Translations under genes and position numbers: made by a program
Notes under the pieces: generated by a model
Told to the model about the DNA's origin: nothing
Seen by the model: the letters and a program-made list of their open reading frames with translations, nothing else
Databases searched by the model: none
Origin: Stegostoma tigrinum
Lineage: Eukaryota
Assembly (NCBI RefSeq): GCF_030684315.1
Contig: NC_081373.1
Location: 42,577,173-42,641,172 of the forward strand
Direction: 5' to 3'
DNA length: 64,000 bases
Shown: one piece after another, positions 20,041 to 62,040 of the stretch
How the letters are laid out: each line of letters opens with the position of its first letter
Numbering within the stretch: the stretch's first letter is position 1

Positions 20041-20247
20041 CATCTGCTTTGTAATGAGACAGTAATACAACAATGAGCAATCATGTCGACCCCTTCATCA
20101 CATCAGAATGGTAATAGGCCATTCAGCCCCTCCAGCCTGTTCCAGCATTTAATGAGATCATGGCTGATCAATGGCCTAATTCCACGTACCTGCCTTTGGC
20201 CCATATCCTTGACTACATTTGCTGAACAGAACATGCTGCACAGAATA

Positions 20248-20441
20248 ACAAAGTGTGGAGCTAGATGAACACAGCAGGCCAAGCAACATCTTAGGAGCAC
20301 AAAAGCTGACGTTTCGGGTCTAGCCCCTTCATCAGAAAACAGTTTTTGTGCTTCTAAGATGCTGCTTGGACTGCTGTGTTCATCTAGCTCCACACTTTGT
20401 TATCTTGGATTCGCCAGCATCTACAGTTCTCATTATCTCTG
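20248..20441 (-). mobile_element. Fold-back Penelope-derived insert with hammerhead core
   Basis: Inverted arms. Minus strand CTGATGAAGGGGCTAGACCCGAAACGTC at 20335-20308. Flanking repeat ATGCT(G/T)CACAGAATA at 20233-20247 and 20442-20456. Confidence 0.85.
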
Positions 20442-20585
20442 ATGCTTCACAGAATAGTAAGAGTTGAGCACTGGTTTGATGCTTAAAAATTGCATTGCTT
20501 CAGACCCTCCAACATAACTTCGTTCACAAGTCATTGAAAAGCGGTGGAACTTGGAGTGGCAACACAGGGAGTTATTCACTGCTGC

Positions 20586-20587
<2 letters not shown>

Positions 20588-20630
<43 letters not shown>
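20588..20630. repeat. (GATT)n microsatellite, probably the tail of the adjacent LINE
   Basis: Ten GATT units directly abutting the element at 20631. Confidence 0.95.
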
Positions 20631-21025
20631 TTATTGTCACGTGTAGTGAAAAGCTTTGTTTATGAGCGGTACAGGTAGATCACAGCAAACAAAGGATGTG
20701 CAGATCAAAAAGACTTAGGGGCATACAGGCTACATTACAAGTTACATTATTTGAGGCTACAGTCCATTCAACAGTCTAATAACAACCAGAAAGAAGCTGT
20801 TCCTGAACCTGCTCTTGCGTGTGTTCGGGCTTCTGTATCTTCTGCCTGAAGGAAGAGGTTGTAGGGGGTTTAATGGGTCTCTCATGATATTGGCCACCTT
20901 TCTGTGGCAGCGAGCCATGTAAATACTATCTATGGATCAAAGGTTGGCTTCCGTGATGGTTGAGCTGTGCATGCCACCTTCTGTAGTTTCTTACAGTCCT
21001 GGGCAGAACAGTTGCTATACCGTAT
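20631..21025 (-). mobile_element. Rex1/Babar-like LINE 3' fragment
   Basis: aagaagctgttcctgaacctg...ctgtatcttctgcctga is the reverse complement of a typical Rex1-type ORF end (PSGRRYRS...RFRNSFF); microsatellite tail. Confidence 0.65.
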
Positions 21026-21436
21026 TGTTGAGTTGATAGTGTTTTCAATCTTGGCAGGAGAATTGCAGCGAACGTAAAGCTTTGTTTTCAAACTTTAAAA
21101 TAGAGTATAGCAAGATGCCAGGTGGCTGGCTTGACTGTAATCATATGTTAAATGTTAAAACTTTGACAGGACTGTTAGCCCTCCAGGAATGTTAAAAAAA
21201 GTCACAGGCATTTGGAGGTTGATGGGTTGAGCTTTAAGCCTGTGTTTAAAAACACACTGACCTCTACTCTGCCAAAATACAGATAGTCGTTTAGCTTGAC
21301 TGTATATAACTTATTGCTAGCACTGCTATTACCGAGTTACAAAACAGTACACACAACCCAAAAGGGGTTATTGATAATGGGGGTCTGATACACATCAGCC
21401 TATCTCAATAACTATCAAGTAATTGTTCTGTATTTA

Positions 21437-22395: not shown

Positions 22396-23271
22396 CTTTA
22401 ACACAAAAGAATTCTTGAATTTCTGTTTCATTGCGCTTTAAGCAGAATAGCTAAGCAATTGAAAATTTTGCATCTAATGTTTTCATATCGCACATTTGCT
22501 TAAAGTTTTACACTTAAAAGTCTTAACTTCCAAAATGTTTGAAGAATAAAAATTGGCCAAATAATCAGTAGCTATGTTTACCACCACAAATCTTTTATCG
22601 GTTGAGTGCGAAGGGATGAAAAGATCAGTTCCATTTATTGGATAAATAAGAAAAACCAACAGCCAGCAATACAAAACAAAGCAAAACATTGTTTCATTTT
22701 CAAATGTTACAAGTGTTAAGTATCATAAGAGCAAGTGATTAGATTGCTCAAACACTTTTCTTGGCAATCCTGAAATGGCTGTGTTGTGTCCCATTGTTTG
22801 AGGTTTCTCATTTTGTTGATAAGGGCTGAAACTTTGTGGTGGTGACACAGGGAGTTACTCATTGCAGCTTGCTAATAAATTCACTCTGTACTCAGTTAGT
22901 AAATCTAATTAAGATACTGGTTATTGAAAAAATCTTTCATTGCTCGAGTTTCAGACAAGAACTGCAAATCCAAGCAAAAAGGAGGAAAAATAGTCATGCA
23001 AATAATTGAGAAAAAAGTTTATGTTGAGTGAGGAGGAATTAATAAGGAATTGAAAAAGGTATTCATTTTTAAGCAATTTTTTACAATATAATTTGTGAAG
23101 GAAGACCAAAACGTGGTTTACTTTTAAGTATATTTTATGAAATATTAGGTAAATAGTACTTCAGGTAATCAGTATCCCCACTTCTGAACTGGAAATTGTA
23201 AGTTGAAATCCCATTTGATGGTCAGCAATTATGCATTAATAAGGCACCAAAAGGGTTGAGCATTTAAAAGG

Positions 23272-24589: not shown

Positions 24590-26650
24590 AATACATCTTA
24601 ATAGGTATGATCTGACTGATATTACAGAAAAATTGGTCATAAAGAAATCCAATACAGCAACTAAATATTCCAGGGTATGTGGCTTTTTGAAAGGGCAGGT
24701 AGGAAGGAAGTGGTGGTGGAGTAGCTTTGATTGTACAAAATGGAATAAGTATCAATATCAAGGAATGACCTAGGATTGATGATGGAGAATCAATATGGGT
24801 GGAGGAAAGAAATAACAAGGGCAAGAAGTTGCTGGTGGGAAGAGTATTTAGGCCCTCTAACTGGAGCTGTTCTGCAGGACAGATATTAAATCAAGTGATA
24901 AGAGAGCACGGGAAAAGAGAAAAGCATTAAACATTTGTGACTTTAAGCTTCATATAGATTGGGAAATTCAAATTAGCAAAGATAGCCAATGAAGAAGAAT
25001 TTGTTGAGTATGTTTAAGACAAGTTTCCTGGAACAATGTGCTGTAAATCCGACCAGGAAACAGACTACTTTGCATCTAGCAATGTGTAACAAGGCTGGAT
25101 TAATAAATGATCTTAGGATAAATATCCCCTGGGGAATAACAACCGTAGTGATTCAGAATTCAGCATTCCGAAGGTATTTATAAAAGAACAGGGCAGAGTT
25201 GGGTGGAGTGGAAAGGGAAAGAGGTTTTGCAGAAAAGACAGGTGTGGAACAATGGCAGACATTTAAGAAAATTGTTCATGAGTCACAACGAAAACATATT
25301 CCAGTGAGGAAGAAGGAAGGGCATAAATCAACCACGTTTAACCAAGGAAGTTAAGGATAACATGAAACTGAAAGAAAACATACAATGTTGTTGATAAAAC
25401 AGAGGACTGGGCATGTTTTAAAATTCAATAAAAGGTAATCAAAAAATTATCAAAGAAGGAGAAAATAGAACAGCAAACTAGCAATTAATATAAAATTGGA
25501 CACAGTGATTTTTTTTTCATACGAAAAGGGAGGGGCTGAAGGGGACATAGTGCCCTGTGATAATTAAACTGGGGAAAGAATAATAGGAAGCCAGGAACTG
25601 ACAAAGGCATTTAAAAAATACTTTGCATTGATCTTCATGGTAGTGGATAAACAGCATATCAAAAATACTTAACAGTAAGGGGCAAAGGGCTTGACAAATT
25701 TATTACAGTTCTTTGAGGACATACTAAGCAGGACAGATCAAGTGGAACCGGTAAATGTAATACATTTGAATTTTCGAGTACCAAAAAGAAGGCTACTTAA
25801 TAATAGCCTATGGTGTTGTGGATAGTACATTTGCATTAGCATGGATAGAGGATGAGCTAACTGATAGAAGGCTTAAAGTCACATGACACCAGGTTATAGT
25901 CCAACAGGTTTATTTGAAATCACAAACTTTTGAAGTGACTTCACCTGATAGAAGAGCAGGGGTTTGAAAGCTTGTGATTTCAAATAAGTCTGTTGGACTA
26001 TAACCTGGTGTTATGTGTTTTCTGACCTTGTCCAACCCAGTCCAATACTGGCACCTCCACAATTAATAGAAAACAGAAATTTGGGATAAAGGGAGCATTT
26101 TCAGGATGACAACCTGTCAGGTAAACAAGGATCAGTGCTGGGGTCATAATTTACAAAATACATGCATGACTTGGATGAGGAAAATGAATGTACTATTGCT
26201 AAGCTTATGGATGACACAAAAATAAATGGGAAGAAATTACTATGGATGATACCAATAGCCTACAGAGGGATCTCGGCAGGTTAAGTGAGAGAATAAGAGC
26301 TTGGTGCTTGAGATATAACATGAGAGAAGGTGAGGTTATGCAATTTGGTAGGAAGAATAGAACTGTTGAATTGTATTTCAATGGAGAAACTGCAGACAAT
26401 GTCAGCTCAAACTGATTTGGGGTGCCCCCATGCATTAATAGCAAAAAGCTAACTTCTAAGTTTGGGGTTCAGTAGGGGAAACAAACAGACTGTTGGCCTT
26501 TATTTCAATAGAAATGGAGTACAAAAATGGGGTGTTCTAAAACAACACAAGTTTTTAGTCAGACTACAGCTGGAATACTGTAAAGAGCTTTGGTTCTGCT
26601 AGGAAAGGAAAGAAATACTGGCATTGGTGGCAGTAGAGAAGGTTCACAAC
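24590..26650 (+). mobile_element. Old, internally deleted CR1 LINE with a nested Penelope insert
   Basis: Degenerate endonuclease (YDL..ITE, ESIWVE) and RT (DDTKI) motifs. Confidence 0.8.
25875..26061. mobile_element. Fold-back Penelope-derived insert (second family)
   Basis: Arms cacatgacaccaggttatagtccaacaggtttatttgaaatcacaa and ttgtgatttcaaataagtctgttggactataacctggtgttatgtg. Same family as 15137-15255 and 53193-53290. Confidence 0.8.
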
Positions 26651-26961
26651 CATACCTACTTGAGTAAAATTTGATCTCAGTTAAAGTCACTTACCCAATT
26701 TATGGCCAGAAGACCTGGAATTTTACAGACATCTCATGTAAAAGTTGACACGAGTTCTTCAAAAATAACAGACCTACATTTGTGAATCAAGGTATTGTCC
26801 TGCACATAAATGTTACGAGGAGGAAATGATGTTTTTACATGCTATTATGAGTTTTGATGTACAATTCACATTAACATTAGGCTATGAATTTCTTAAGTTC
26901 AGTATTGAATGAGCTCTATAATTACTAGTAGTATAAATAGTATTCACTTTTTGTATGGCCA

Positions 26962-27620
26962 TCCCACTCCACTCCGGGTCTCCATCCTGCTGACCGTCTT
27001 ACTCCGAGTCGCCATCCTGCTGGCTGTCCCACTCCAGGACTCCATCCTGCTGACCATCCCACACTGGGTCTCCATCCTGCTGGCCATCTCAGTCTGGGTC
27101 TCCATCCTGCTGACCATCCCACTACAGGTCTCCATCCTCTGTCCATTCCACTCCAGGTCTCCAACCTGCTGTCCACCCCACTCCGGGTCTCCATCCTGCT
27201 GGCCGTCCCATTCCTGGTCTCCATCCTGCTGACCATCCCACACTGGGTCTCCATCCTGCTGGCCATCTCAGTCTGGGTCTCCATCCTGCTGACCATCCCA
27301 CTACGGGACTCCATCCTGCTGACCATCCCACTACAGGTCTCCATCCTCTGTCCATTCCACTCCAGGTCTCCAACCTGCTGTCCACCCCACTCCGGGTCTC
27401 CATCCTGCTGGCCGTCCCATTCCTGGTCTCCATCCTGCTGACTGTCCCACTCCGGTTCTCCATCCTGCTGACTGTCTCACTCAGGGTCTCCATCCTGCTG
27501 GCCATCCTACTCCGGGTCTCCATCCTGCTGGCCGTCCCACTCCGGGGCTCCATCCTGCTGGCTGACCCACTCCGGGTCTCCATCCTGCTGGCTGTCCCAC
27601 TCCGGGTCTCCAACCTGCTC
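26962..27620. repeat. 30-bp minisatellite (ccactccgggtctccatcctgctggccgtc), about 22 units
   Basis: Seen directly. Explains the SRMETRSGTA-type repetitive ORFs. Lies in FFAR4 intron 2. Confidence 0.97.
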
Positions 27621-27944
27621 CATTCTGGCCCTCTGCTGCACCGATGATGTAATTGCTGCTCCAAGATAAGTTTTTTTTACAAAAGGAGAGAATAACGAGA
27701 AGAAAAAAGAACAAGCAGACGGAATAATTACTAATTCATTTTTGCTTGTATTGTCTTTATCCAGTAATTACCGTAATTTGTTGCGTTTTTATCTTTATTC
27801 ATTTAGAGATCAATTGGGCTTCTGCTAATGAAACAGTATGAATTTTGATGGGCATGAGTTTCAGCCCCTCAAAAGTAGTATCCATGTAATAGTCAACCCC
27901 TAAACTTAACCTTAAAAACACTGTTAAATATTTGACTTTTACAC

Positions 27945-29294: not shown

Positions 29295-29329
29295 ATGACC
29301 AAAGAAAATATATAAAATGAACTTTATGG

Positions 29330-29335: not shown

Positions 29336-29469
29336 TTACATGAATGGATCAAGGAGACTCTAATGGGTACTCAGGTGGGAGAGCTGGTATTATGAAAGTC
29401 CAATGACACAAATCTTTATGATTTGCTGTCTTACATTTCCCTTTACTCTTATTAAATCTGACATTAAAG

Positions 29470-29665
29470 AAAGAAGCAGAAAATGTTGGGGAAACTCATC
29501 TGTGGAAAGAGAAACAAAGTTAATGCTTCAAGTCTAAAGACTTCTTTAGAATAAAGTATTTCAAGTCTTGAAATGTTAGCTCTGTTCCTCGCTCCACAAA
29601 TGCTGCCAGACCTGCTGAGTTTCTCTAGCATTTAGCTTTTATGTTGGATCTCTAGCATCAGCAGT
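29470..29665. mobile_element. Decayed fold-back Penelope insert
   Basis: Imperfect inverted arms; atgctgccagacctgctgagtttctctagcatt pLTR motif. Confidence 0.65.
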
Positions 29666-29946
29666 ATTGTGCTATCGCCGTACCTTGTAACACCTTTGCT
29701 GCACAATGAATACAAATTAATTAATGGTGGAGCCGACAATTTCCTGCACATATGGAAGCACTGAATGATATGATGACAGAAGATTACGTGATTTGTTCTC
29801 TCCCAGTGCAGCACATTATACAACCACAAAAAAAAATCCAGCTCTTTACTCACATTTGCTTCTCTTGTACAGTTGGCCTGATGCACAAAATTGACTCATA
29901 ACAATGAAAACTGTTGGAACATTTATACACAAATGTTTGTCATAAC

Positions 29947-30121: not shown

Positions 30122-31128
30122 CTGCACAAGAAGCAAAATGCACAGTCAGAACTATAACCATGTAGACAGTAATAATGATCATGGACTTCAATGGATTCTT
30201 CTAGCTAAGAGCAAATATCCTTTTCAATTAAAGATGCAATAATTGATAGTAAAGAAAATGCAAAGAACAAAAAACGGTAAATCAAGGTACGTTTCACAGT
30301 GCAACTTGCGAACATTCCCATTTCATGGTGGCAGATGTGAAATCAATATAACAGTTGCACCAGAGAGGTTTCTGTACAACACAAACAATATCAGGAAATG
30401 ATGGAAAAACACAACAGGTTTGTTGGAAATGAAAATAATGTTAAGGCTTCACGTCAATTCATCAATCTGAAATGTTCAATGTTTTTCTCTATATAGATGC
30501 TTTACTTCCAGCATTCGCTGGTTTTATTTCCAATTTCCACCATCTGGAGTGTTTTGCTTTTGTCTGCAACACAGGCAGATTCACAACATCAATGGGTGTA
30601 ATATTACAGCTTTACAATTTCTGCATGAATTTCCACTACAAATGTGTCATGGGAATTTAGAATAGAAGAAACTGACAAGATATAGACATTTATAGATGCA
30701 TTCATTTATTCCTACATTTCTTCAATTAAATCACAAGCTTTCTTAAGAAAAGAGCGACTCTAAGGGAAACAATGTTGTTAATCAGTTTTTCCCATTGAAT
30801 AAGCATATAAACTGGTGTTTGGGTCTATTGGGCTTTCTCCTTACGGAAGTGAGCATTCTAAGTTGATATATTGAACATGTGCAGTACGTTCCTAAATGAA
30901 AAGTCTAAATACAGAAGACAAACATTTAAACTACTGGCAGAGGTTACCATGAAACAAACTGACAGTGAGATTGGAATCACTAAATACTGGGCCAATGAGC
31001 AGAATACAGGCACATGATTTAGGATAAAATCAGATGGGAAACAGGTCAAAGATAAAGAGATTGCACAGCACGAGAATTCTAAACAGAGAGAGAACACTGA
31101 GACAAAGACGAAAGGACCAGGGAGGGTG

Positions 31129-31132
<4 letters not shown>

Positions 31133-31610: not shown

Positions 31611-31823
31611 AAAACCAAATGATGCTGTAAATCAGGAACAAAAGCAAAAGTTACTGGAAAAGTCCAGTGGGTTTGGCAGCATTTGTGAAGAATCAGTCAG
31701 AGTTAATGTTTCAGGTGCAGTTCTGAGGAAGAGTCACCGGACATGAAATGTTAACTCTGGTTTTTTCTCCACAAATGCTGCCAGACCTGTTGAGCTTTTT
31801 CAGCAACTTCTGTTTTTGATTTT
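31611..31823. mobile_element. Older fold-back Penelope insert
   Basis: Imperfect inverted arms; degenerate CTGAGGA...GAAATGTT core; direct repeat TTTTATCAATA at 31600-31610 and 31824-31834. Confidence 0.75.
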
Positions 31824-37050: not shown

Positions 37051-37094
37051 TGCTGCAAACATCCGAGCTGAAGTCTCACTCAGTGTGGAGAGAG

Positions 37095-38475
37095 CCAGCA
37101 GGCCCAGACAGGGAACAATGGGTCCAGACAGGGAGATAGTGAGCCCAGAAAGGGGAACAGCAGGCCCAGACAGGGGTCAATAGGTCCAGACAGAGAGATA
37201 GCGGGTTCAGAAAGGGGGACAGCAGGCCCAGATAGGGGGACCGTGAGTCCAGACAGGGAGATAGTGGGCCCAGACAGGGGAACGGTGGGTCCAGACAGGG
37301 GGCTGGCGCATTCAGACAGGGGGTTGGTGGGCCCAGACAGAGGGATGGCACGTCCAGACAGGGGTATGGTGGGCCCAGACGGGGACAGTGTGTTCAGACA
37401 GGGGTACAGTGCGTCCAGACGGGGGAACAGCATGTCCAGTCAGGGGGGCATTGGGCCCAGACAGGAGTCAGCACATCCAGACAGGGGGACAGCATTCAGA
37501 CAGGGTGATGGTGGGCCCAGACAGGGATACAGTGTGTCCAGACAGGGGGATGGTGGGCACAGATAGGGGGACAACCCATCCAGGCAGGGGGATAGTGGGC
37601 CCAGACAGGGGTCAGCACGTCCAGACAGAGGGACAGCGTGTCCAGACAGAGGGATAGTGGGCCTAGACAGGGGGACAGTGCATCCAGACAGGATGATGGT
37701 GGGCCCAGACAGGGAGACAGTGTGTCCAGACAGGGGGATGGTGGGCACAGATAGGGGGACAACCCATCCAGGCAGGGGGATGGTGGGCCCAGACAGGGGT
37801 CAGCACGTCCAGACAGAGGGACAGCGTGTCCAGACAGAGGGATAGTGGGCCTAGACAGGGGGACAGTGCATCCAGACAGGCGGATGGTGGGCCCCGACAG
37901 GGGACAGTGCTTCCAGATAGGGTGACAGCGGCCCAGAAAGGGGGACAGCAGGCCCAGACAGGGGGATGGTGAGCCCAGACAGGGGAATGGCACGTCCAGA
38001 CAGGGGGATGGTAGGCCCAGACAGGGGGGCAGCACGTCCAGAGAGGGAGACAGCATGTCCAGACAGGGGGATGGTGGGCCCTGATGGGGGACAGCAGGTC
38101 CAGACAGGGGGACAGTGGGCCCAGACAGAGGGACGGCGCATCCAGACAGGGAGATGGTGGGCCCCAACAGGGGGACAGTGTGTTCAGGCAGAGGGATAGC
38201 AGGCCCAGACAGGGGTCAGCACATCCAGACAGCAGGGATAGCGCACCTAGTCAGGAGGACAGCAGGCCCAGACAGGGGGGCAGCCGGTTCAGACAGGGAG
38301 ACAGTGCGTCCGGACAGGGGACAGAACGTCCACACAGGGGGACAGCATGTCCAGACAGGGGGAAGGTGCATTCAGAAACGGTGACAGTGGGCCTGTGCAG
38401 GGGAATGGTGCGTCCAGACACGGGAACAGCAGGCCTGGACAGGCGCCAGTGGGTCTAGACAGGGGGACGGGCGAC
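37095..38475. repeat. ~21-bp GC-rich minisatellite (gtgggcccagacagggggat)
   Basis: Dozens of ccagacagg-cored units; includes a 188-bp higher-order duplication. Confidence 0.95.
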
Positions 38476-39050
38476 CAGGGTTCTGAACTGTGAAGACAGC
38501 AGGCCTGAACTGGGGGGACGGTGGGCCTGAACTGGGGAGCAGGGGGAATGGGGTTCCAGATTGGGGGCCTGAACTCAGGTACAGGGGACTGGGGTTCCGG
38601 ACTGGGGGGACGGTGGGCCCAAACGGGGAAACAGGGGGAATGGGGTTCCAGACTGGGGATCCAAACTGGGGTACAGGGGACTGGGGTTCTGGATTGGGGG
38701 TCCAAACTGGGGGGACAGGGGGACTGGGGTTCTGGACAGCAGGCCTGGATTGGGGCGACGGGGAATCTGAAGTTCTGGACTGGGGGCCCAAACTGGGGTA
38801 CAGGGGAATTGGGTTCTAGACTAGAGGGACAGCAGGCCTAAATTGGGGGACAGGGGACTGGGGCTCCAAAATGGGGTACAGGGGAATTGGGGTTCCAGAG
38901 TGTGGTGATAGTGGGCCTGAGCTGAGGTACAGAGGGACTGGGGTTCCAGACTGGGGGTCAGTGGGCCCGAACTGGTGGGACAGGGGGGCTGGGGCTCCCA
39001 AGTGAGGGGACAGCGGGCCTGAACTGGGGGCCCGGGCAGGGGGGCAGTGT
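38476..39050. repeat. G-rich minisatellite (ggggactggggttccagactggggg-type)
   Basis: Dense G4-G6 runs with short spacers. Confidence 0.9.
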
Positions 39051-40999: not shown

Positions 41000-43960
41000 A
41001 ATGGGTAAAAATCTAGCAGACTGGGTTTAATTGAGAAAATACAAGGCAATCCATTTTGGGAGGAAGAATAGAAAGTCAGAATATTATTTAAGTGGAGACA
41101 GATGACAAAATGGTGGGTTCTTACATACTCCAGGTGTGAGTGTTAGCAGGAGCACAAAATCGTCATCACTAAAATTGTGACACAAGTTATGAACGGCACA
41201 TAAAGAGCAAACCAAATACTAGACAGTTACGCTAAAGCTGTATCAAACCTCAGTTAGAATACACTTAGACTACTGTGTGACATTTTATGTAAAGGATATT
41301 GAGGCACTAGCATTTGTGCAGTGATTTTGTACAGGGATGATACAAAATATGCGCAGGTATGTAAGTCAGGAAGGAATGAACTAGCTTTGTCTTTCTTCCC
41401 TTGAAATACGAAAGCAATGCACTGATCTCATGGTAACTCTAAATGTATTACAGGACTAGGAAACAGAAGAAACTTTTAAGATGTGCACAAGAGAATCTTC
41501 TTAATTAATACATCTCCAGCCAACAGGTAGTGAAAGTGGATCTTGAATCTGCTCCTGGGAAAGTAGAGTGTGTTAGGAGGAGATCATGCAGCACATTGTG
41601 ACAACTGCATAGTTTGGTTTAGAGTAATTACAGAAAATAGCCAAAGTAATATTGCTCAATTGGGAAGAGTTCATTTCAGTTATTTAAAGAATGGACTGGA
41701 GAAAAGATGGTTCCAGAGTAAAGGAGCAATTGAAAAATGGAGAGTAGTCAGCGAAGTGATAATGAAGGTACAAGATAGGAATAATATTTTAAAGATAAAA
41801 GTTGGACCACTCAAATACATTCAGCCCTGGATGACAAAGAATATAAAAGTTAAACTAAAACAGAAAAAAAGGAGATTTATAACAAATGTTAGGAGTGAGA
41901 CGCTGCTAATAATCAAGAAGATAGAAAGCACAGGAGTGAATTTAAAAAGCTAATGCAGGAGGCAAACAGACTACAGGTAAATGATTCAGAGATAATGGGA
42001 ACTGCAGATGCTGGAGAATCCGAGATAACAAAGTGTGAAGCTGGATGAACACAGCAGGCCAAGCAGCATCTCAGGAGCACAAAAGGCCTAGACCCTTCAT
42101 CAGAAAAACAGAAATACAGGTAAATGATTCGTAGGTAATATTAAATTGAACTCTGAAACTTTTCACAAGCACATGAAGTGTAAGCAGTTTGCTAAGGATA
42201 AAACTGGACCTATTAAGGACCCAAAGGAAAATGTTCATATGGAGACAGAGGAAATGGATGGTGTCAAATGAGTTAAAAGAAAAATGGATGATGTGAAAGT
42301 TACACTGAAAGAGAAAAGGAAAGTTATGGACTGGGGAATAATACTTAGAGAAAATATGCTAAAAGGATTAACAATATTATAAGTTGTGATGTAGCCATTT
42401 GGCTTGGGTGGGATTCATGCTTACTTGCTTCAAGAAATAGCAGAAGCCAATCCTGCAATCTTAACTGGAAGTTGCTAATGTTACACCACTATGAAAAAAA
42501 GTGAGGGATAAGCCAGGAATTTACAGGGTAGTCAAACAGCTATAGTTCTACTCACCATCCTGACTTGGAACTATATCACTGTTCTCTCCCTGTTACTGGG
42601 TCTACATCCTGCAACTCAACTTCTCACCAAGGGCACTGTGGGTGCTCCTACACCACAGAGATTGCAGTCGTTCAAGAAAATAGCCCACCAGCAACTTCTC
42701 AAGGGCAACTAGGGGTGGGCAATAAATGTTAACCTATCCAGTGTCATTCACATCCCATGAATGAATAAAAAAGAGTCAGCTCAATGTCAGTGGTGTGCAA
42801 TTGCTGGAAAGTATATCAAGATCTTTACAAAATTACATTTGGAAATGAATGTGTTAATCAAAGAGCGACAACATGGATTTGATAGAACTAAACAGTGTCA
42901 GACTCCATTGGTTGAATTCTTTCATGAGATACAAAGAGTGGTCAAGGTGTTGTAGGGATATTGTATTTGGACATTCAAAAGGTGTTCAAAATAGGTGCTA
43001 CTCATAAGCCTTACTGAGAAGGTGGAAGTTCACGGAATTAGGGGGAAACGACATCATGGATACAAAATTGGCTTACTGAAAGGATGCAGAGAGAGGTGGC
43101 GGATTGATACTTTATAGACTAGCGGGTGGTTTGTAATGTTCCCCAAGGTTTATTTTGGGTCCATTGTATTTAACTTTAAATAAACAACCTTGGCTCGGGT
43201 GTTGGGAGCAGCTTTATAAAGTTAACAGCTGGTATGAAATATTTCAAAGTGGTAGTTAATGATGAGGAAGTGCTGCATTCTACAGGATGATAGTCAGCCT
43301 GGTGAAGTAGGTAGATACATAGCTGATGACAATCACCGTGGAGATGTGTGAAGTGATGCACATTAGAAGAATTAACCTGGAAAGACACTGTAATACAGCA
43401 GAACTATTTGGGATATGTAGATGAGCAGAGAAACCTCATGTCCATATATACAAATCCTTAAAAATGGCAGGGCAAGCTGATAATGTGGTTAAGTAGCAAG
43501 TGAGTTGCTCAGGTTTATAAATGGAAGAAGTAAATATAAAGACAAGGTGATAACACTAGAACCTTACAAATGGTAGGTTAGACCTCAGATGGAGAATTGT
43601 GGATAATTCTGGTCACCATACTTCAAGAAAGATGTAAAATGTAATAGAATAGATATAGGGAGTTTTACCACAACATAACAAGGAATAACGAACTTAGCTA
43701 TGAGGAGAGGTTGGAAAAGTTAGAATTATTCCCCTTAATTTAGATGAGGTGTCCAATTGAAGTTTTCAAGATGATCATAAGAGTCATTGAGTTTTTAAGT
43801 ATGGCATGCAAAGAAACCCTTCGGCCCACTGTGTAATCAAACATACTGCAATCAAACATCCATCAATTTTAATCAGAGGTTTTGGTACAGTAAATGAAGA
43901 GAAACAAAACTAATCACTCTGGAGAGTGGATGAATAACTAGGAACTATTGATTCAAAATC
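41000..43960 (+). mobile_element. Old CR1 LINE fragments with nested inserts
   Basis: Degenerate motifs (PWMTKNIK, RQHGF) with many stops. Nested SINE/LINE tail near 42540-42770. Confidence 0.7.
41988..42114 (-). mobile_element. Single-arm Penelope-derived insert with deleted hammerhead core
   Basis: Same sequence family as 44756-44970 but lacks gctgacgtttcg. Direct repeat TACAGGTAAATGATTC at 41972-41987 and 42115-42130. Confidence 0.85.
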
Positions 43961-44210: not shown

Positions 44211-44755
44211 CTGAAAGAATAAAACATGTCGCAAGGTATTTTTTACCTGAATGGTGAACAACGTAACAAGGCTATTATACTTAAAACACAGGCTCGTTAT
44301 TTCAGCACTTTTACCATTAAGACCCATTCATCCCACACTTCTGTGCCCACTAACCAAAACTCTTAATTACTTTTTCAGTGCACAGACCTTTGAGGTCCAT
44401 GTGTGGCATTAACTTCCTTTAAAATCTGTTTCACTAAACTTTTGGCCTTCTTACTAATACTTCCTGATGTGTTTCAAATTTAAATTTTCACAAAGCACCA
44501 CAGGGCATTTTAACATGTTTAAAAAAAAGTGTCATACAAATGCTGCTAGTTTCACACTGCTTGTCCAATTCTGTTACATAAATGTTGAGCTGTAAATCAG
44601 ACCAGTGCCGCTAGTGGTAGAAAAGCAGGATTTTCAAAAGTCCACTGATGTGTGCTTGTTCCTGTGACACATTTACTAAGACCCACTTGCGACAGAGGAG
44701 AACCTGGACACTTTACTTTGTCAACAAAACAAAAACCAACATTATTGAGCATCTG

Positions 44756-44970
44756 AGATAATGGGAACTGCAGATGCTGGAGAATTCCAAGATAATAAAA
44801 TGTGAGGCTGGATGAACACAGCAGGCCAAGCAGCATCTCAGGAGCACAAAAGCTGACGTTTCGGGCCTAGACCCTTCATCTGATGAAGGGTCTAGGCCCG
44901 AAACGTCAGCTTTTGTGCTCCTGAGATGCTGCTTGGCCTGCTGTGTTCATCCAGCCTCACATTTTATTAT
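44756..44970 (+). mobile_element. Perfect fold-back Penelope-derived insert with hammerhead core
   Basis: 89-bp perfect arms (44792-44880 and 44882-44970). CTGATGAAGGGTCTAGGCCCGAAACGTC at 44880-44907. Flanking repeat ATTATTGAGCATCTG at 44741-44755 and 44969-44983. Confidence 0.9.
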
Positions 44971-45747
44971 TATTGAGCATCTGTCTGTTAATCCCTGCTG
45001 CATCATTACTCTACCCAAGTTTCTTTTGATAGCAAGATCAGAAGGAAGAACCAAAATGATAATCGAACCATGAATGTGAAACAAGGAAATTGTACATAAT
45101 TTTAGTTAACTCTGTGACAGCTAAATAACTAACTGGATATAGGAAGTTGTCTTACTGAACATATAAATTACCATTCTGCATTCTAAATGAATCTGACCGT
45201 CAAAATTATTCAGCGTGGTTTAAGGGGTTTACCTTGGCATTAGTGAAGATAATATACCAGGAGTACAGTAGATCTTGTTATGAAGGGAAGCTTACAGCTT
45301 GGGCATTGTGTCCTTGGTCACTGCAATCAATGTAGACTTATAACTAGAATTGGTAAAGGAGAAGTGTGGTGCTGTCCCTAAAAACACCAAATAATAGGTG
45401 CAAGGAAGATTGTTCATTTATAAACATAAGCCAACCAGAGTGGTTTATACACTCAGACAAATAAACTGCAAGACAATAAGAATAAATGGAAAGCAATCAC
45501 TCGAAGAAAAGAATTCTCTGTTCTACATGAGTATCATTTGTCAATTCATTCCCTTACTTTTAAGTTCAATGCTTGTTAAGTATGAAGGTGGTGTGTGGTC
45601 TCTTTAATAACATGCATTCTTTATGCAACATTTAGAAGGGATTGTATAAAAGTGACCAAGTTTGGTGGAATTCAAGCATCGTAACCTGATGACTACTCAA
45701 GTCATTACCTTACTCAGGGGTAACACAGAGAAAAAACACTTAATTAT

Positions 45748-46161: not shown

Positions 46162-46277
46162 TGCTACAGGCATACTAGTCAAAACTGCCTAATCTTACCC
46201 GATCTCATAAGTTAAGCAGACTCAGGCCTCATTTGTACTTGGAGTGGAGATGGCCTGGGAATACCAGCTGCAGTAGC
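46162..46277 (+). pseudogene. Degenerate full-length 5S rRNA-derived sequence (probable SINE head)
   Basis: gctacaggcatact...cgatctcataagttaagcag...gtacttggagtggagatggcctgggaatacc...gtagc is colinear with vertebrate 5S rRNA including box A/IE/C regions. Many substitutions and no T-run terminator. Confidence 0.8.
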
Positions 46278-46896
46278 AAAGCAAAGGCAGGGAGGTCTTG
46301 TGTGGCATTGATAAGGTCCCTACGTCCAGACTGGAAGGTCTGGGTTCAAGTCCCAATTGCCCCACAGGTGTTTCATAACATGTCCAACAGGCTGATTAGA
46401 AAGTATCTTAGCACTCTTTGTTTAACAATACAGAAAAACAAGGAGGTTATGCAAAACCTGTATAACAACTGGAGTATTCAATCAACTTCTGGGTACCATA
46501 CATGAGGCACACGTGAGTGTGGAAAATACAAAATCTTGAGGATCGTCCCACGGATGAGGAATTTCCGTATGTGGAAAGACTGGAGAAGTTGGTAAGAGAG
46601 GAGATTGATAGAGATATTCAAAACTATGAAGGATCTGGACAGCGTCAGTACTGTGTGGAGCTGGAGGAACAGGTTAGGCAGCATCGGAGGAGTAGGAAAG
46701 TTGACATTTACACCCGTCATCTGTCCTGTTCCTACCAGTAGAAGGTTTGAGACCTGTTGCACATGTTAACTAGCCAAGGAAAAGCAAAGGAAGATAAACC
46801 TTCTCACACAGTGAGGGGTTAGACTGAATGCACAGTCTGACTGCTTGGCAGCAGCAGGGTGAATTCAGGCTTTCAAACAGAATTGAATTGCTACAA

Positions 46897-48147
46897 GACA
46901 GCAGTATGGTATCTCGGTGTCTAGCACTGCAGCCTCACTGCACCAGGGACCTGGGTTCGATTCCACCCTTGGGTGTCTGTCTTTGTGGAGCTTGCATATT
47001 CTCCGCATGCCTCTGTGGGTTTCTCTGGATGTTCTAGTTTCCTCTCACAGTCCAGTGATGTGCAGCTTAGGGTGGATTGGCCATGCTAAGTTGTCCTGGA
47101 CTGTACACGCTACGGTGGATTGGCCATGCTAAGAGGGAGTAAGAACTGCCAATGCTGGAGTCTGAGATAACACATTGTGGAGCTGGAGGAACACAGCAGG
47201 CCGGGCAGCATCAGAGGAGCAGGAACACTGATGTTTCGGGTCGGGACCCTTCTTCAGAAATGGGGGAAGGGAAAGGGGAGGGCAAGGGGGCTCTGAAATA
47301 AATAGAAAGAGGGGAGCGGTGACAGCAGATGGGAGAGAAGATGGACAGGTCAAGGAGGCAGGGATGAAGCTAGTAAAGGGGAGTGTAGCTAGGTGGTGGT
47401 GGTCTACTGTATCCACTGTTCTCAATGTGGCCTCCTCTACATCGTTGAGACCAAACGGAGGCTCGGAGACCGCTTTGTAGAGCACTGGCGCTTGGTTCGT
47501 GACAAACAACACCTCCCAGTTGCAAACCACTTCAACTCCACCTTCCACTCCCTGGACAACATGTCCATCCTTGGCCTCCTTCAGTGTCACAACGATGCCA
47601 CCCGGAAACTGGAGGAGCAGCATTGCATATTCTACCTTGGAAGCCTACAAACTAATGTTCTCAATGTGGACTTTACTAGCTTAAAAATCTCCCCACCGAC
47701 ACACCCCCACCTCATCCCAAGACCAATCCCCCCACTCTCAACCCCACTTCATGTCTATCTTCCCTTCCACCTATCTGCTCCTCCCACCTCACTGGCCAAT
47801 CCCCATCACCACCTACTTACACTCATTTTTACTAGCTTCATCCCCGCCTCCTTGACCTGTCCATCTTCCCTCCCATCTATACGCTCCATCTATACATTTC
47901 TGAAGAAGGATCTTGACCTGAAACATCAGCTTTCCTGTTCCTCTGATGCTGCCTGACCTGATGTGTTCCTCCAGCTCCACACTGTGTTATCTTGGTCATT
48001 CTAAGTTGTCCTGGGGTGTGCAGGGTGGGGTGGATTAGCCATGACAAATGCAGAGTAATAGGCTGGTCTGGGTGGGATGCTCTCTGGAGGGTTGGTTGGG
48101 ACCCAATAGGCTGAATGACCTGCTCCCACACTATTGGGGTTCTATGA
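46897..48147 (+). mobile_element. tRNA-derived SINE split by a Penelope insertion
   Basis: Head with B box gggttcgattcc near 46953-46964. Body resumes at about 47992 with duplicated ttgg(c/t)cat(g/t)ctaag. Confidence 0.8.
47134..47991 (+). mobile_element. Penelope-like element: inverted pLTR, GIY-YIG fragment, pLTR
   Basis: ORF 47393-47956: VVYCIHCSQCGLLYIVETKRRLGDRFVEH...PVANHFN...RKLEEQHCIFYLGSLQ...LN. Inverted terminal copies carry CTGAAGA...GAAACATC. Confidence 0.92.
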
Positions 48148-52889: not shown

Positions 52890-53040
52890 ACAAGGAAAAA
52901 GGGAAGACATTTGATGGTGGGGAGATGGAGATAACACAGCAGGCTAGGCAGCAACAGAGGAACAGGAAAGTAGACGTTATGGGTCAGGACACTGTGTTAT
53001 CTCTGACTCCAGCATCGGCAGTTCTTACTATCTCTGAGTG
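52890..53040. mobile_element. Short Penelope-derived insert within Tx1
   Basis: Same family as the ends of 47134-47991 (ctccagcatcggcagttcttact). Confidence 0.7.
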
Positions 53041-53192
53041 GAGAGATGGAGGTGTCTCTTGCTCCCCCATCCTCCCCAAAAAAGGAGCCATTCCTCAGGG
53101 TCGGAGGGATGGGGGAAGTCTGGTACTAACAACACATTCCCCCGGGATGACAAAGTATTGTCCCCTGGAAACCCCTCTCCTTCCTCACTAGG

Positions 53193-53639
53193 TCAGAAAT
53201 CACATGACACCAGGTTATGGTCCAACAGGTTTATTTGAAAACACAAACTTTTAGAGCCTTACTCTTTCTTCAGGTGTTAGCGAGAGAGGAAGTATCAGAT
53301 ACAGAATTTATAAGTAAAAGATCAAATGGTCACACCACTGAAGAGGATGTATTAAACAAACCTAAGATGCTGCTAAACCTTCATTCAGTTAGAAGGATGT
53401 AATTGATTAATATGTATATATAAATGCCTGAATTCCTTTCAAGTCACAGTCCTGAGAGAACTAAAAGGTTTTATCAGTGTAAAGAAGAGGTGACATTTTA
53501 GGTCAGACAATGCATGTTGGATGTGAGGCCTTGTTTAGAATCCGTTTGTGTTTTGGTTTTGAGTCAGACTGGTTTTATTTCGAAAGTAGGACTTTATAAG
53601 ATGCTGCATTTTTTGAACAAAATAGATTGTATTTGCAAA
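53193..53639 (-). mobile_element. Penelope pLTR insert within Tx1
   Basis: Same family as 14760-15255 in reverse. Direct repeat TCCTCACTAGG at 53182-53192 and 53640-53650. Confidence 0.82.
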
Positions 53640-55265: not shown

Positions 55266-55574
55266 TCTGCCTCTATCCTTGTTTCAAACCTGACACCTCT
55301 CACTTTATCCACTTCTGACCGAAAGTCAGTCAACTAAAATAGTGATGTGCTCTCTCCACTGATGCTGTCTGACTTGCTGATTATTTGCAACATTTTTACT
55401 CTTTTGCAATTACTCGGGCTGACCCCAATGAATTCAAATTGCAAAATGATTTTCTTTCTGACGGAGCAGAAATCACCCGCAGCCTTTCTAGTGGGCACGT
55501 GTCTGTTGGATTAAATACAAGGAAATGTGTGTCCAGCCAATAACATGTGTTGTGTTTCTGAATAAAAACCACAC
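55266..55574 (+). repeat. 309-bp direct duplicate of 59029-59337
   Basis: Colinear and equal in length, with only scattered substitutions from tctgcctctatcc to aataaaaaccacac. Confidence 0.95.
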
Positions 55575-58280: not shown

Positions 58281-58394
58281 CAACACTGCTAATCGTATTA
58301 TGGGGAATTACAGGAAGCAAGAGCTTTGCTCTGTTTTATAGTGTGGCTTCTCTACTGTCCCAATTGTACAACATTGAACAATTTTTATTCTCAG

Positions 58395-59165
58395 AGCAAA
58401 AGCAAAAATCTGCAGATAACTGAAATCAAAAACAGAAACAGTCAGCTGGTCAAGCAACCTCTTCAGAGAGAAAAAACAAAGTTCACATTTTAGGTTGCTG
58501 GCCTTGCATCAGAACTGAAGAAACATGAACGGATGTAATAAGTTTTCAGTAAGCACAAAGGTAGATAAGGCAGTAAGATCAAAGGCAACGTCTTTAATAA
58601 AATGGAAGGCGCCCAGTAGTGGAGACTAAACCCAGATTAAGTGCTTCGAGGAATATCTGCATTCAGACTGCCATTGTGACCCTGAATTTCTGGTCGCCTG
58701 TCTTTCTAATTCTCTGCCCCACTCCTACTCTGACTTTGACTTCTACACTGTTCCAATGAAGCCGAACATAAACTCAAGTAACAGCGTTGTCACCATTTCA
58801 TTCGGCATTTTACAGGCTCTTGGAATCAAAACCGAATTTAACAATTTCAGATTTTAACAATTACTCCCATACATTTGGGGTAGCTGGTGGTGATGTTTCT
58901 GCTGTTGCTATTTGTACCTCCTCTCAAGTTTTGTTTGTTTCTTTACCAGCCTTTTTGGCATCTCTGTTTGCCATGCACCATCATCCTTTCTTTTTTCATT
59001 TAATCTTACATCCCAGATACTGTCCCCATCTGCCTCTATCCTTGTTTCAAACCTGATACCTCTCACTTTTTCCACTTCCGACCGAAAGTCAGTCAACTAA
59101 AATAGTGATGTGCTCTCTCCACTGATGCTGTCTGACTTGCTAATTATTCGCAATATTTTTACTCC
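58395..59165 (+). mobile_element. Decayed Penelope element (inverted pLTR, GIY-YIG remnant, pLTR)
   Basis: ggagactaaacccagattaag...gaatatctgcattcag resembles GETKRRL..F.EHL.S; pLTR motif gatgctgtctgacttgct. Confidence 0.65.
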
Positions 59166-59694
59166 TTTGCAATTACACGGGCTGACCCCAATGAATTCAA
59201 ATTGCAAAATGATTTTTTTTCTGACGGAGCAGAAATCACCCGCAGCCTTTCTAGTGGGCACGTGTCTGTTGGATTAAATACAAGGAAATGTGTGTCCAGC
59301 CAATAACACGTGTTGTGTATCTGAATAAAAACCACACTTTGAAAATTCGGCTAGCAGACTTGGCAAGGATAAAGCAAAATACTTACTGATATTAAGGCTG
59401 TATGGATTGTGGAGTGAAATTAAATCTAAACACTGCTGCGTTGCTTGCAGAGAGTATCCACACATCTTCTGGACTACAGAGGCAAAGGGATTCCTCACAG
59501 AAAGTAGCCATTTGACCTTACATTATTGTATTTGAAATGAGCACATCTTAAAGAGGAACACTGCAGGCATTTGCAGCACAATGGGCTTCCCAGACCCCCA
59601 GACCCAACACACATTAAAGACCACTTCATTGTGCATAAAGCTGCCTACGAATCTATTGAGGGTGTCTCACGTGGAACTTTTGATCCTTGGAGAC

Positions 59695-59980
59695 ATTAAT
59701 TAACCGGTCATTCTTGAACGAAGATGGGGATTCACCAGTCTAATGCATTCGTCAGGATTTAAAGTGCTGACGTCAGGGATGGGACCTGGCTGGAAATTTT
59801 CACAGTCCATTAAACCCATTGCCTGCTGTCAACCTTGGAGCATCGCAAGCTGCAGAATTACCGAGTCAAATGGGATGCCTTGTGCCTGGATCTGACTTGA
59901 CAAAAGGAGCCCTGCCAATTTCACCCCTTCTCTCCCAACCAACAGTGATGCAAATCTAAAACAGAAGCCAAACGGCCAAC
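59695..59980 (+). promoter_or_regulatory. PDE6C proximal promoter/5'UTR region
   Basis: Repeat-free DNA upstream of the ATG. TAATTA homeodomain palindrome near 59697, CRX-like GGATTT at 59755, TGCTGACGTCAG (CRE/C-MARE-like) at 59765-59776. Confidence 0.5.
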
Positions 59981-60457
59981 ATGGGGAGTGTTAACAAGGA
60001 AACAGTTGAACAATACTTGGAGAACAACCCACAATTTGCCAAGGAATACTTTGACAGGAAGCTCAGGCCAGAAACGATTGGCGCAATCTTCAATGGGACA
60101 AAGGTGGGATTGGAGGGTGGGGCTTCCTTCAAAGACCTGTGCAAGTTGGAAGAGTCTGACATTGTTTTTGAGCTGGTCAAGGAGCTACAGGATGACTCCA
60201 ATGTCGAGAAGCAGATGCACAAGGTACTGCAAAGGATTGTCACTCTGGTCAGTGCAGACAGAGGCAGCTTGTTCATATTCAGATCAAGGAATGGTATTGC
60301 AGAACTGGCCACAAGACTCTTTAATGTGACCAGAGACTCCAGTTTTGAGAATAATCTTGTGCCTCCCCAAGGCGAGATTGTTTTCCCTTTGGATATCGGG
60401 GTAGTGGGATGGACAGCAAAAACCAAGAAGATTCAGAATGTTCCTGACGTTACAAAG
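59981..60457 (+). CDS. PDE6C: Cone cGMP phosphodiesterase 6C alpha' subunit, coding exon 1 (gene continues beyond the window)
   Basis: MGSVNKETVEQYLENNPQFAKEYFDRKLR...ADRGS...SRNG...FPLDIGVVGW...NVPDVTK (GAF-A start). 477 nt, phase-0 donor AAG|GTCTGT. Synteny with RBP4 and FFAR4 favours PDE6C over PDE6A/B. Confidence 0.93.
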
Positions 60458-60724
60458 GTCTGTTGCTGTCAAACGTTTGACATGCATTCTATAATTGGTA
60501 GTAGCTATGCTTAATTCAAACCAGTAATTTGTACCAGAAACTTCCTTGAAAGAGTTAACTAACTCTCATTGTTTACAATATGTGAATGTTACGAGAAATG
60601 TAATGGTGTAGATTGCAAGATATAAAAGCAAAATACTAATTAATCTCCTGCTTTACTCCTCCATCTGTGTCATCTTTGCAGTGGGAGTTGTGTGGCTCCC
60701 AGTCTCTTTTTTGTAATTAGCATA

Positions 60725-62040
60725 ACAGGAATCGATGGGTATTGGGGGCAAACTCTCCACTGCTTGGAGTCATACCTGGCTCATAGAAAGATGGTCGTGG
60801 TTGTTGCAGGTCAGTCATCTCAGCTCCAACACATTTCTGCAAGAGGTCTTCAGGGTATTGTCCTAGGTCCAGCCATCTTCAGCTGCTTCATTCATGATCT
60901 TCCCTCCATCATAAGGTCAGAGATGTTCATCGATGATTGCACAATGTTTAGCACCATTTGTGACTCCTCAGATACTGAAACAGCCCGTGTTCAAATGCAA
61001 CAAGATCTAGACGATATCCAGGCTTGGTCTGCCAAGTGACAAGTAATATTCACGCCTCACAAATGCCAGGCTATGACTATCACCAATAAAAGACAATCTA
61101 ACCCTCGCCCCTTGACATTCAATGGTGTTACTGTCATTAAATACCCCACCACCAACATCCTCGGGGTTATCATTGACCAGAAACTCAACTGGACCCACCA
61201 TATAAACACAGTAGCTACACGAGCAGGTCAGAAGCTAGGAATACTGTAGCAAGTAACTCATCCCCTGACTCCTCAAAGCTTGTCCACCATCGAGAAGGCA
61301 CAAGTCAGGAATATAAGATAACAAAGTGTGGAGCTGGATGAACACAGCAGGGCAAGCAACATCTCAGGAGCACAAAAGCTGACGTTTCGGGCCTAGACCC
61401 TTCATCAGGTCTAGGCCCGAAACGTCAGCTTTTGTGCTCCTGAGATGCTGCTTGGCCTGCTGTGTTCATCCAGCTCCATACTTTGTTATCTTGGATTCTA
61501 CAGCATCTGCAGTTCCCATTATCACAAGTCAGGAATGTGATGGAATATTCCCCACTTGCCTGGATGAGTGCAGCCTAAACAACAATCAAGAAGCTTGATA
61601 CCATCCAGGACAAAGCAGCCCGCTTGATCGGCACTTCATCCACAAGCATCCACTCCTTCCACTTCAGTCCTCAGTAGCAATGATATGTACTATCTACAAG
61701 ATGCACTGCACAAATTCACCAAAGATCCTCAGATAGCACCTGTCATGCCCACAACCACTTCCATCTAGGAGGACGAGGGCAGCAGATACATGGAAACACT
61801 GTCACCTTCAAGTTCCCCTTCAAGCCATTCACCACCCTGACTTGAAAATATATCGCCGTTCCTTCACTGTCGTTAGGTCAAAATCCTGGGCTTACCTCCC
61901 TAATAGCACTGTGGGCCAACCCACAGCATGTGGACCGCAGCGGTTCAAGAAAGAAGCTCACCACCACCTTCTCAAGAACAACTAGGGATAGGCAAGAAAT
62001 GCTGGCCAGCCAGCGACTCCCACATCCCAGAAATAAAGGA
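60725..62040 (+). mobile_element. CR1-like LINE 3' part in PDE6C intron 1
   Basis: ORF 60692-61039: LESYLAHRKMVVVV...QGIVLGPAIFSCFIHDLP...MFIDDCT. Confidence 0.9.
61313..61522 (-). mobile_element. Fold-back Penelope-derived insert with hammerhead core
   Basis: 85-bp arms (61315-61399 and 61408-61492, 3 mismatches). Minus strand CTGATGAAGGGTCTAGGCCCGAAACGTC at 61408-61381. Exact repeat CACAAGTCAGGAAT at 61299-61312 and 61523-61536. Confidence 0.9.

Follow-up and report, generated by a model that had tools for sequence, protein, structure and literature searches.

What are the short, hammerhead-bearing inserts in this 64-kb window (the whole stretch of zebra shark DNA analysed), and how did most of them come to be palindromic? 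The first-pass annotation had described four of them as a family of fold-back mini-elements, with ends set by a ribozyme or by self-priming. Our analysis showed that they match the last 100–130 bases of a shark Penelope-like element (PLE). We consider it likely that they are dead-on-arrival, extremely 5'-truncated insertions, in which two cDNAs from both nicked target strands were joined head to head. Truncated, inverted PLE ends are an ordinary class and expected debris in shark genomes; the position of their ends is what could matter.

Anatomy of the four inserts

All four inserts (family A, e1–e4) were confirmed, three as fold-backs (e1, e3 and e4) and one as a single arm (e2). Positions within arms, including their 5' ends, are given on a scale in which the C of the CUGAUGA box is 0. 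The following features, including the target-site duplications (TSDs), were observed directly.

20233–20247: e1 left TSD copy, 15 bp, one mismatch to 20442–20456
20248–20339, minus strand: e1 tail-less arm, full minimal hammerhead core, 5' end −4
20335 (C of CUGAUGA), minus strand: e1 hammerhead, predicted cut between 20308 and 20307
20340–20441, plus strand: e1 tail-bearing arm, start +27, ~35-nt tail at its end
20442–20456: e1 right TSD copy
41972–41987: e2 left TSD copy, 16 bp
41988–42114, minus strand: e2 single tail-bearing arm, 5' end about −5 (−11 unless its final bases count as a degenerate extension of the target duplication)
42115–42130: e2 right TSD copy, 16 bp
44741–44755: e3 left TSD copy, 15 bp
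44756–44880, minus strand: e3 tail-bearing arm, 5' end +2, core broken
44879–44970, plus strand: e3 arm without tail, 5' end −1, core complete from 44880, last two bases overlapping the right TSD
44969–44983: e3 right TSD copy, 15 bp
61299–61312: e4 left TSD copy, 14 bp, within a LINE fragment
61313–61408, minus strand: e4 tail-less arm, full core, 5' end 0
61409–61522, plus strand: e4 tail-bearing arm, start +9/+10, in stem II
61523–61536: e4 right TSD copy, 14 bp

The inserts are 127–215 bp long and contain no ORF. Direct repeats of 14–16 bp bound all four, as had been noted; exact matches of at least 14 occurred in 21 of 2000 random zone pairs. The e4 duplication was checked independently, as the LINE reading frame ends in ...QVRN on the left of the insert and resumes with QVRNVMEY... 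on the right. The description of three inverted dimers, each with a full core on one arm only and a ~35-nt extension on one arm only, held for all three fold-backs, and e2 carries the tail as well. Arm-to-arm identity is 57/61 in e1, 89/89 (complementary) in e3 and 79/82 in e4, and e3 folds as one long hairpin (−194.5 kcal/mol). Variants private to one insert are shared by both of its arms at two sites in e1 and four sites in e3. The junctions of the three fold-backs are all different, with microhomology of only 0–2 nt.

A MITE, that is, a DNA-transposon derivative, is defined by matching terminal inverted repeats, a fixed short TSD and a uniform structure. The inserts are likewise short, non-coding, palindromic and of high copy number, and one could suppose that a MITE happened to contain PLE sequence. 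However, their ends are unequal owing to the one-sided tail, their TSDs vary between 14 and 16 bp, the three centres differ and one member is a single arm. We give a MITE origin next to no credence.

A pattern scan recognised the minimal hammerhead as intact in three of the four inserts; in e2 a 12-nt deletion removes the GAAA and leaves no intact hammerhead. Thus, the label of a hammerhead-bearing family stands for the pattern in three copies but not for e2, and Rfam returned no hammerhead among eight matches at E ≤ 1. Its miRNA matches, with scores below gathering, were rejected as generic hairpin matches. The motif resembles the minimal hammerheads of metazoan PLEs (PMC4209133) in lacking helix III, in the extra base between positions 9 and 10.1, in the G10.1–C11.1 pair and palindromic 15.2–16.2, and in occurring both solo and as opposite-strand pairs, which that study considered "probably related to truncated PLEs". 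In contrast to those hammerheads, helix I has only 2 bp and helix II about 4 bp in families A and B. A transcript through a fold-back is predicted to form a duplex of ~89 bp that would bury the core, and we therefore predict that fold-back copies are inactive as ribozymes.

Relationship to Penelope-like elements

The family-A arm corresponds to the 3' end of a PLE and comprises the end of the pLTR, the minimal hammerhead and the tail. A zebra-shark protein, P0005, combines an RT-like region with a GIY-YIG domain and ends in a 14-residue read-through, 13 residues of which are identical to the family-A arm translation. Pfam identified GIY-YIG on P0005 (E 0.0019) and both GIY-YIG and RVT_1 on P0003 (E about 9e-5); it matched nothing on the window endonuclease fragment alone. 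This link, observed directly, and a sister copy with an attached endonuclease in the window bear out the suggested Penelope derivation. Further PLE inserts in the window belong to subfamilies B and C and to family D.

47138–47402, minus strand: subfamily B, tail-bearing inverted arm belonging to a longer PLE insertion, 5' end about −145
47384–47995, plus strand: subfamily B, partner arm with pyrimidine-rich pLTR and hammerhead at 47900, no tail, 5' end −516
47393–47692, plus strand: subfamily B, 3' part of the GIY-YIG endonuclease
52917–53036: subfamily B fold-back, junction +11/+79, away from the box
29463–29675: subfamily C fold-back; the arm without tail runs to −9..0, the tailed one from about +11..+23
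31611–31822: subfamily C fold-back; the arm without tail runs from −5..0, the tailed one to about +17..+23; TSD 11 bp
1985–2110, minus strand: subfamily C, one tail arm only, with its end at about 0
16945–17048, minus strand: subfamily C, one arm only, from 0/+1, lying inside the endonuclease of an older PLE (about 16400–17500)
25876–26062: family D fold-back, tail arm from −9..−1, tail-less arm to +17
14329–15255: family D inverted insertion, short tail-less arm (+32) and a long arm made up of an endonuclease remnant, pLTR, hammerhead (15137) and tail

The subfamily B copy at 47143–47995 has the same inverted-plus-tail layout as family A with the endonuclease attached. This endonuclease is 73–75% identical to whale- and zebra-shark proteins, and the subfamily B arm is 77–81% identical to family A. 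The 64-kb window holds no long family-A copy, and the arm patterns matched no locus in the viral, metagenome and prokaryote genome collections.

The inserts share the hallmarks of EN+ PLEs: they are the 3' terminus of an element encoding RT with GIY-YIG at the C terminus, with a 30–40 bp tail and a minimal pLTR hammerhead, and three of the four include an adjacent inverted, 5'-truncated copy with joined 5' ends. A CX2-5CxxC zinc-finger linker between RT and EN, given as a mark of Neptune/Nematis in PMC8557442, appears to be present: CX4CxxC can be recognised in 10 of the 22 window-endonuclease homologs, the remainder being short or spliced gene models or having an altered linker (P0005). A higher motif count, 17 of 22, lumps cysteines of the linker with those of the endonuclease. 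The parent of family A is likely to be of Neptune/Nematis type.

An adjacent inverted, 5'-truncated copy with a 30–40 bp tail at one end (PMC8557442), together with TSDs (8–10 bp) and palindromic junctions as in rotifers (PMC3846280), is a published PLE signature, and its layout of inverted copy, one-sided tail and TSD is the one seen here. As in EN+ PLE complex insertions (PMC8557442, PMC3846280, PMC2377424), the arms are head to head, the 30–40 bp tail is on one arm, a TSD is present, the minimal hammerhead lies in the pLTR and the link is to RT plus GIY-YIG. The shark inserts differ in their extreme truncation (no ORF, 127–215 bp), in TSDs of 14–16 bp rather than the 8–10 bp of rotifer PLEs, and in arm ends that pile up at the 5' edge of the hammerhead. 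PAc, a Poseidon element of Anolis carolinensis (PMC11167929), is alike in having the hammerhead core about 110–150 nt upstream of two tail-delimiting RT start sites, in extension of both target strands and in AT-rich targets. In contrast, the ORF of PAc begins at stem II, whereas in family A the frame that opens in CUGAUGA reaches a stop after 13 codons, and Poseidon is without the CX2-5CxxC linker seen in these shark homologs. Our search of published papers for a shark family of such structure turned up nothing beyond a reference to Penelope in the genome of the whale shark.

Formation of the fold-backs

The tail lies on the 5'-shorter arm in seven of seven fold-backs of subfamilies A–C, including all three of family A, and a tail arm of this kind therefore cannot be a copy of the tail-less arm. 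This polarity counts against simple self-priming on sense-strand cDNA, in which a single strand would fold at the self-complementarity of the hammerhead and copy itself into a second arm. Self-priming has been proposed for rotifer PLEs, on an antisense template, and junction palindromes were so interpreted (PMC3846280). The variants shared by both arms would suit it, as they would the double-primed insertion described below, and gene conversion within the hairpin could be another source of them. The family-A core region also folds as a hairpin at 0..+29, but this hairpin does not exceed shuffled sequences in stability (z −0.7 to −1.0), the junction microhomology is minimal, and only e1 lies near the 0/+29 register. 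Family D has the opposite polarity, with the tail on the 5'-longer arm in both of its fold-backs, which fits self-priming and counts against the double-primed insertion that we favour. We regard self-priming as improbable for these inserts.

That hammerhead self-cleavage sets the template ends, as also proposed in the first-pass annotation, is very improbable. In its favour, +27, where the tail-bearing arm of e1 begins, is a single base away from the predicted cut, the deletion in e2 finishes near +30, and two of the 12 rows listed in the between-letters table from the genome-wide contigs, of a kind not given, start at +27/+28. However, cleavage after +27 would leave ends at +28 and not at the box, which an RNA cleaved in this way could not template, and just one of six family-A fold-back arms starts next to the cut. 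The recurrent end at −9..+1 lies upstream of the cut, hence on uncleaved templates. In addition, minimal hammerhead monomers showed no cleavage in vitro (PMC4209133), and hammerhead mutants of the anole PLE left insertion unchanged and no RNA reads ended at the cut (PMC11167929).

Double-primed insertion would account for the anatomy by steps modelled on the anole PLE, for which cleavage and extension of both strands, two RT start sites delimiting the tail, and uncleaved RNA as the main substrate were described in vitro (PMC11167929). The element protein would nick both target strands 14–16 nt apart. Of two internal start sites separated by ~35 nt, each 3'-OH would use one for priming, so that one arm would gain the tail and the other would not; this two-start-site mechanism was shown for a Poseidon-clade protein rather than for the shark family-A protein. 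Joining over 0–2 nt of microhomology and fill-in would then yield a palindrome between TSDs. With less support, the cDNAs may stop at the hammerhead where the template 5' end lies just upstream of CUGAUGA, possibly by run-off from the first pLTR/ORF junction of the transcript; alternatively, the hairpin at 0..+29 may stall RT. Of the two primers, the leading one would extend to this edge, and the tail primer, which trails, would fall short of it. PMC8557442 and PMC11167929 state that the origin of PLE inverted repeats and tails and the role of the hammerhead are open.

Arm ends at the hammerhead and genomic setting

The longest arm ends at −9..+1 of the box in 9 of the 16 well-aligned PLE inserts of the window (p 5e-5 to 1e-3). 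Without the four family-A copies the count is 5/12 (p 0.006, 0.11 and 0.11 under three nulls), where clustering is not robust. Adding three weak matches by model position, placements that are unreliable, gave 9/19 (p 1.5e-4 to 8e-3), or 5/15 without family A (p 0.03 to 0.31). By eye, one of these (30371–30551) is a decayed fold-back reaching about 0, and the other two run upstream of the box. All four family-A copies stop at −5..0, which plain random truncation does not predict, and these stops, with no long family-A copy in the window, count against our preferred reading. The claim that the fold-back junction falls at the CUGAUGA box thus survives in that one arm tends to stop there, but not for the junctions themselves, which differ among the three family-A fold-backs. 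In the largely open-access literature searched, we found no description of such clustering.

These stops could also reflect a distinct non-autonomous short RNA (SINE- or retrozyme-like, single-arm, starting just upstream of CUGAUGA) that is mobilised in trans by the PLE protein and folds back at insertion. Non-autonomous PLE derivatives (PMC8557442) and pLTR-derived retrozymes (bioRxiv 10.64898/2026.07.22.740005) exist; the latter are likewise non-coding with a type I hammerhead. We nevertheless think this unlikely. Subfamily C and family D, both of which have long copies in the window, show this boundary too, and in the anole PLE the template requires ORF sequence extending past the region of mapped starts to +172 (PMC11167929), a stretch that would be missing from the inserts. 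Retrozymes are head-to-tail with at least two same-strand hammerheads, whereas the shark inserts consist of inverted arms or of one arm, and no more than one core is intact in each; tandem same-strand units are absent from all four, and by that definition they are not non-LTR retrozymes. None of the records carrying the arm is listed as RNA, which has no bearing on expression, and contigs do not reveal RNA ends.

Genome-wide, 51,746 contigs of run X1 lie on the 104-nt arm. Contig depth is not copy number and the reference homology itself ends at −4, so that no share of box-ending copies is derivable; the depth asymmetry of run X1 was reversed in run X14 and was left out of account. In all four runs contigs continue upstream of the box into pLTR-like sequence, which indicates many longer copies and argues against the short RNA. 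The loose ends beyond −1..−4 show, over only about 30 nt, a purine-rich consensus like the upstream pLTR in each run (agreement 0.34–0.96). Among the joints listed (≥7), two are strand switches, +50/−4 and +39/+7; one has an end at −4, seen in two runs, as the short RNA would predict. A separate fold-back family mobilised as a unit also conflicts with these contigs and with the shared architecture of the endonuclease-bearing copy, and the three different junctions, directly observed, mean that the hairpins were not copied as units.

Within double-primed insertion, we tentatively entertain the possibility that shark PLE stubs are run-off cDNAs which, in several families, map one fixed template 5' end to the leading edge of the hammerhead, and that on a single RNA the primer for the tail lags behind the one for the tail-less arm. 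If so, the genome would preserve, in tens of thousands of copies, a natural archive of insertions primed from both strands, the hammerhead would mark a transcript start or RT stop and not a cut, and a discrete short RNA could possibly seed retrozyme-like derivatives. In a family of very high copy number with clean TSDs, junction counts can test double against self-priming and cleavage against run-off.

The inserts had been placed in introns of three genes, which synteny and the look of the sequence suggest to be FFAR4, RBP4 and PDE6C. This placement holds for e1, between two 7tm_1 exons, and e3, between lipocalin exons. It is unconfirmed for e2, which lies 3' of the last lipocalin exon found (a terminal one was not located in the window), and e4 only follows a putative PDE6-like first exon, recognised by translation and lacking a Pfam match, with no second exon seen in the window. 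The ~90-bp hairpins in or near host introns would be expected sources of dsRNA.

Structure of the four inserts

The analysis confirmed what the first-pass annotation had observed, and its interpretation was partly supported. Four short inserts (family A) are each bounded by a target-site duplication (TSD) and consist of one or two arms, with an extension of about 35 nt, the tail, on one arm. Three of them are inverted dimers, as noted. Positions within arms are counted from the C of the CUGAUGA box (0).

20248–20441, e1: inverted dimer; TSD 15 bp with one mismatch; arm-to-arm identity 57/61; 5' ends −4 (tail-less arm) and +27 (tailed arm)
41988–42114, e2: one tailed arm only, reaching about −5, with GAAA missing from its core; TSD 16 bp
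44756–44970, e3: inverted dimer; TSD 15 bp; arm-to-arm identity 89/89; 5' ends −1 (tail-less) and +2 (tailed)
61313–61522, e4: inverted dimer; TSD 14 bp; arm-to-arm identity 79/82; 5' ends 0 (tail-less) and +9 or +10 (tailed)
60644–62100: LINE fragment (RVT_1 match) hosting e4; its reading frame picks up again across the TSD

An exact match of at least 14 nt arose by chance in 21 of 2000 random zone pairs, and the e4 TSD is independently confirmed because it repeats QVRN of the host LINE frame. The insert core carries the minimal-hammerhead features listed by Cervera and De la Pena (PMC4209133), with a helix I of 2 bp; an Rfam search did not detect this core. A transcript through e3 is computed to fold as a single long hairpin (−194.5 kcal/mol), which would bury its hammerhead core.

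Parent element and relation to known systems

The proposed Penelope origin was borne out: each arm corresponds to the 3' terminus of a Penelope-like element (PLE). The Stegostoma protein P0005, which combines an RT-like region with GIY-YIG, reads through the pLTR, and its last 14 residues match the arm translation at 13/14. The sister subfamily B at 47143–47995 has an arm 77–81% identical to that of family A and the same layout. PLE ends in the window were collected with BLAST, a scan for the motif and a profile search, and included the following.

47138–47995: subfamily B insertion between two lipocalin exons; inverted tailed arm, then open GIY-YIG endonuclease fragment, pLTR and tail-less hammerhead
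16400–17500, minus strand: old PLE with linker, endonuclease and pLTR; a second PLE stub (16945–17048) is nested in its endonuclease
14329–15255, 25876–26062, 53188–53330: family D PLE, with a hammerhead unlike the others
30371–30551, 55290–55402, 58442–58520, 59060–59170: decayed hammerhead-like PLE ends

The segments 55266–55565 and 59029–59328 are the two copies of a 300-bp duplication (96% identity). A CX4CxxC linker was found in 10/22 homologs of the window endonuclease; with the zinc-finger linker taken as a clade criterion, as in PMC8557442, this points to a Neptune/Nematis rather than a Penelope/Poseidon parent. Alignment to one arm recovered 51,746, 6,700, 688 and 2,093 contigs in four runs; the loose ends past −1 to −4 gave a purine-rich consensus resembling the upstream pLTR in all four (agreement 0.34 to 0.96), and therefore longer copies exist, mixed with other continuations.

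The inserts, proposed to be retrozyme-like, do not fit the definition of non-LTR retrozymes in bioRxiv 10.64898/2026.07.22.740005, which asks for two or more hammerheads in tandem on the same strand. Nor did they show the features of MITEs, which they had been suggested to mimic. They work instead like truncated EN+ PLE insertions and share the tested features of these. Their architecture is one already described for PLEs. PMC8557442 reports an adjoining inverted copy, truncated at its 5' end, and a tail of 30–40 bp on one side; PMC3846280 reports TSDs as well as palindromes at the junctions. In D. virilis, PMC2377424 reports repeats of 34–37 bp together with inverted termini, and PMC4209133 attributes minimal hammerhead pairs on opposite strands to truncated PLEs. 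Penelope is also listed in a whale-shark annotation (PMC8455134). Passages of PMC6155905 and PMC12910113 held nothing specific to these inserts.

Arm ends at the hammerhead and a proposed route of formation

The clustering of arm ends and the polarity of the tail are the testable points that give the finding its interest. The longest arm ends at −9 to +1 in 9 of 16 well-aligned PLE inserts from four subfamilies in the window; three others end downstream (+11, +21, +53) and four upstream (−44 or beyond, −516, −777, about −950). For single arms, this boundary may in part mark where recognisable similarity runs out; among fold-backs, where the junction is directly visible, 6/9 fall in the same interval. 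Under three smooth-truncation nulls, a 14-nt scan statistic gave p values of 5e-5 to 1.1e-3 for all 16 inserts and 1.5e-4 to 4.1e-3 for fold-backs, and only 0.006 to 0.11 once the four family-A copies were removed. Adding three weak, unreliably placed matches gave 9/19 (p 1.5e-4 to 8e-3). The recurrence of ends at the box is thus probably real in the window. The ribozyme-defined ends that had been proposed did not hold up: cleaved RNA, with the cut predicted after +27, could not template the box, and ends at its edge are therefore no mark of cleavage. Two strand-switch joints were among those listed from contigs (+50/−4 and +39/+7). We found no account of PLE ends clustering at the hammerhead in the literature searched, which misses most subscription papers.

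According to PMC11167929, the anole PLE protein cleaves and extends both strands, uses mainly uncleaved RNA and has two internal start sites that delimit the tail. By analogy, a staggered double nick at the target would yield two primers, one starting at the tail-less site and the other about 35 nt to its 3' side; the resulting cDNAs would be joined end to end, and fill-in would give TSD, inverted arm, direct arm and TSD. This scheme predicts the observed orientation, with 3' ends outward. Private variants are common to both arms at two sites in e1 and four in e3, and the arms of each therefore likely derive from one common template or became alike through later homogenisation. The tailed arm is 5'-shorter in 7/7 fold-backs of subfamilies A–C (C being a further subfamily), as expected of a trailing primer; family D fold-backs reverse this polarity, with the tail on the 5'-longer arm (2/2). 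Copying of the fold-back as a unit was not borne out, since the junction differs in each family-A fold-back, and the hairpin is therefore remade at each insertion. As for the recurrent end, we favour either cDNA run-off at a template 5' end near −5, with priming at the transcript's first pLTR/ORF junction, or stalling of RT at the 0 to +29 hairpin, whose stability was no greater than that of shuffles.

In family A, TTATCT occurs at both boundaries of the tail, and a subfamily B tail (52990–53036) is flanked by a short direct repeat (TATCTCTGA); these repeats suggest that the two RT start sites have a motif in common. The target strand predicted to prime at the tail-less end finishes in AAT (or AATA) in 3/3 family-A fold-backs (20245–20247, 61310–61312, 44969–44973), reminiscent of the preference for cleavage at ATT that has been reported for the anole PLE.

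Genomic surroundings

The DNA is shark-like: among named proteins, the closest homologs of the PLE endonuclease it carries are from whale shark (75% identity) and zebra shark (73%). It contains two exons of 7tm_1 type, lipocalin exons and a first exon resembling PDE6, which by synteny would belong to FFAR4, RBP4 and PDE6C. A 5S rRNA-like sequence at 46162–46279 (42.2 bits, over the Rfam gathering score) is possibly a pseudogene or a 5S-derived SINE. A near-perfect 80-nt palindrome at 11431–11510 is unrelated to the PLE arms, and minisatellite arrays occupy 26934–27680 and 37090–39040, with periods of 30 nt and 21 nt.
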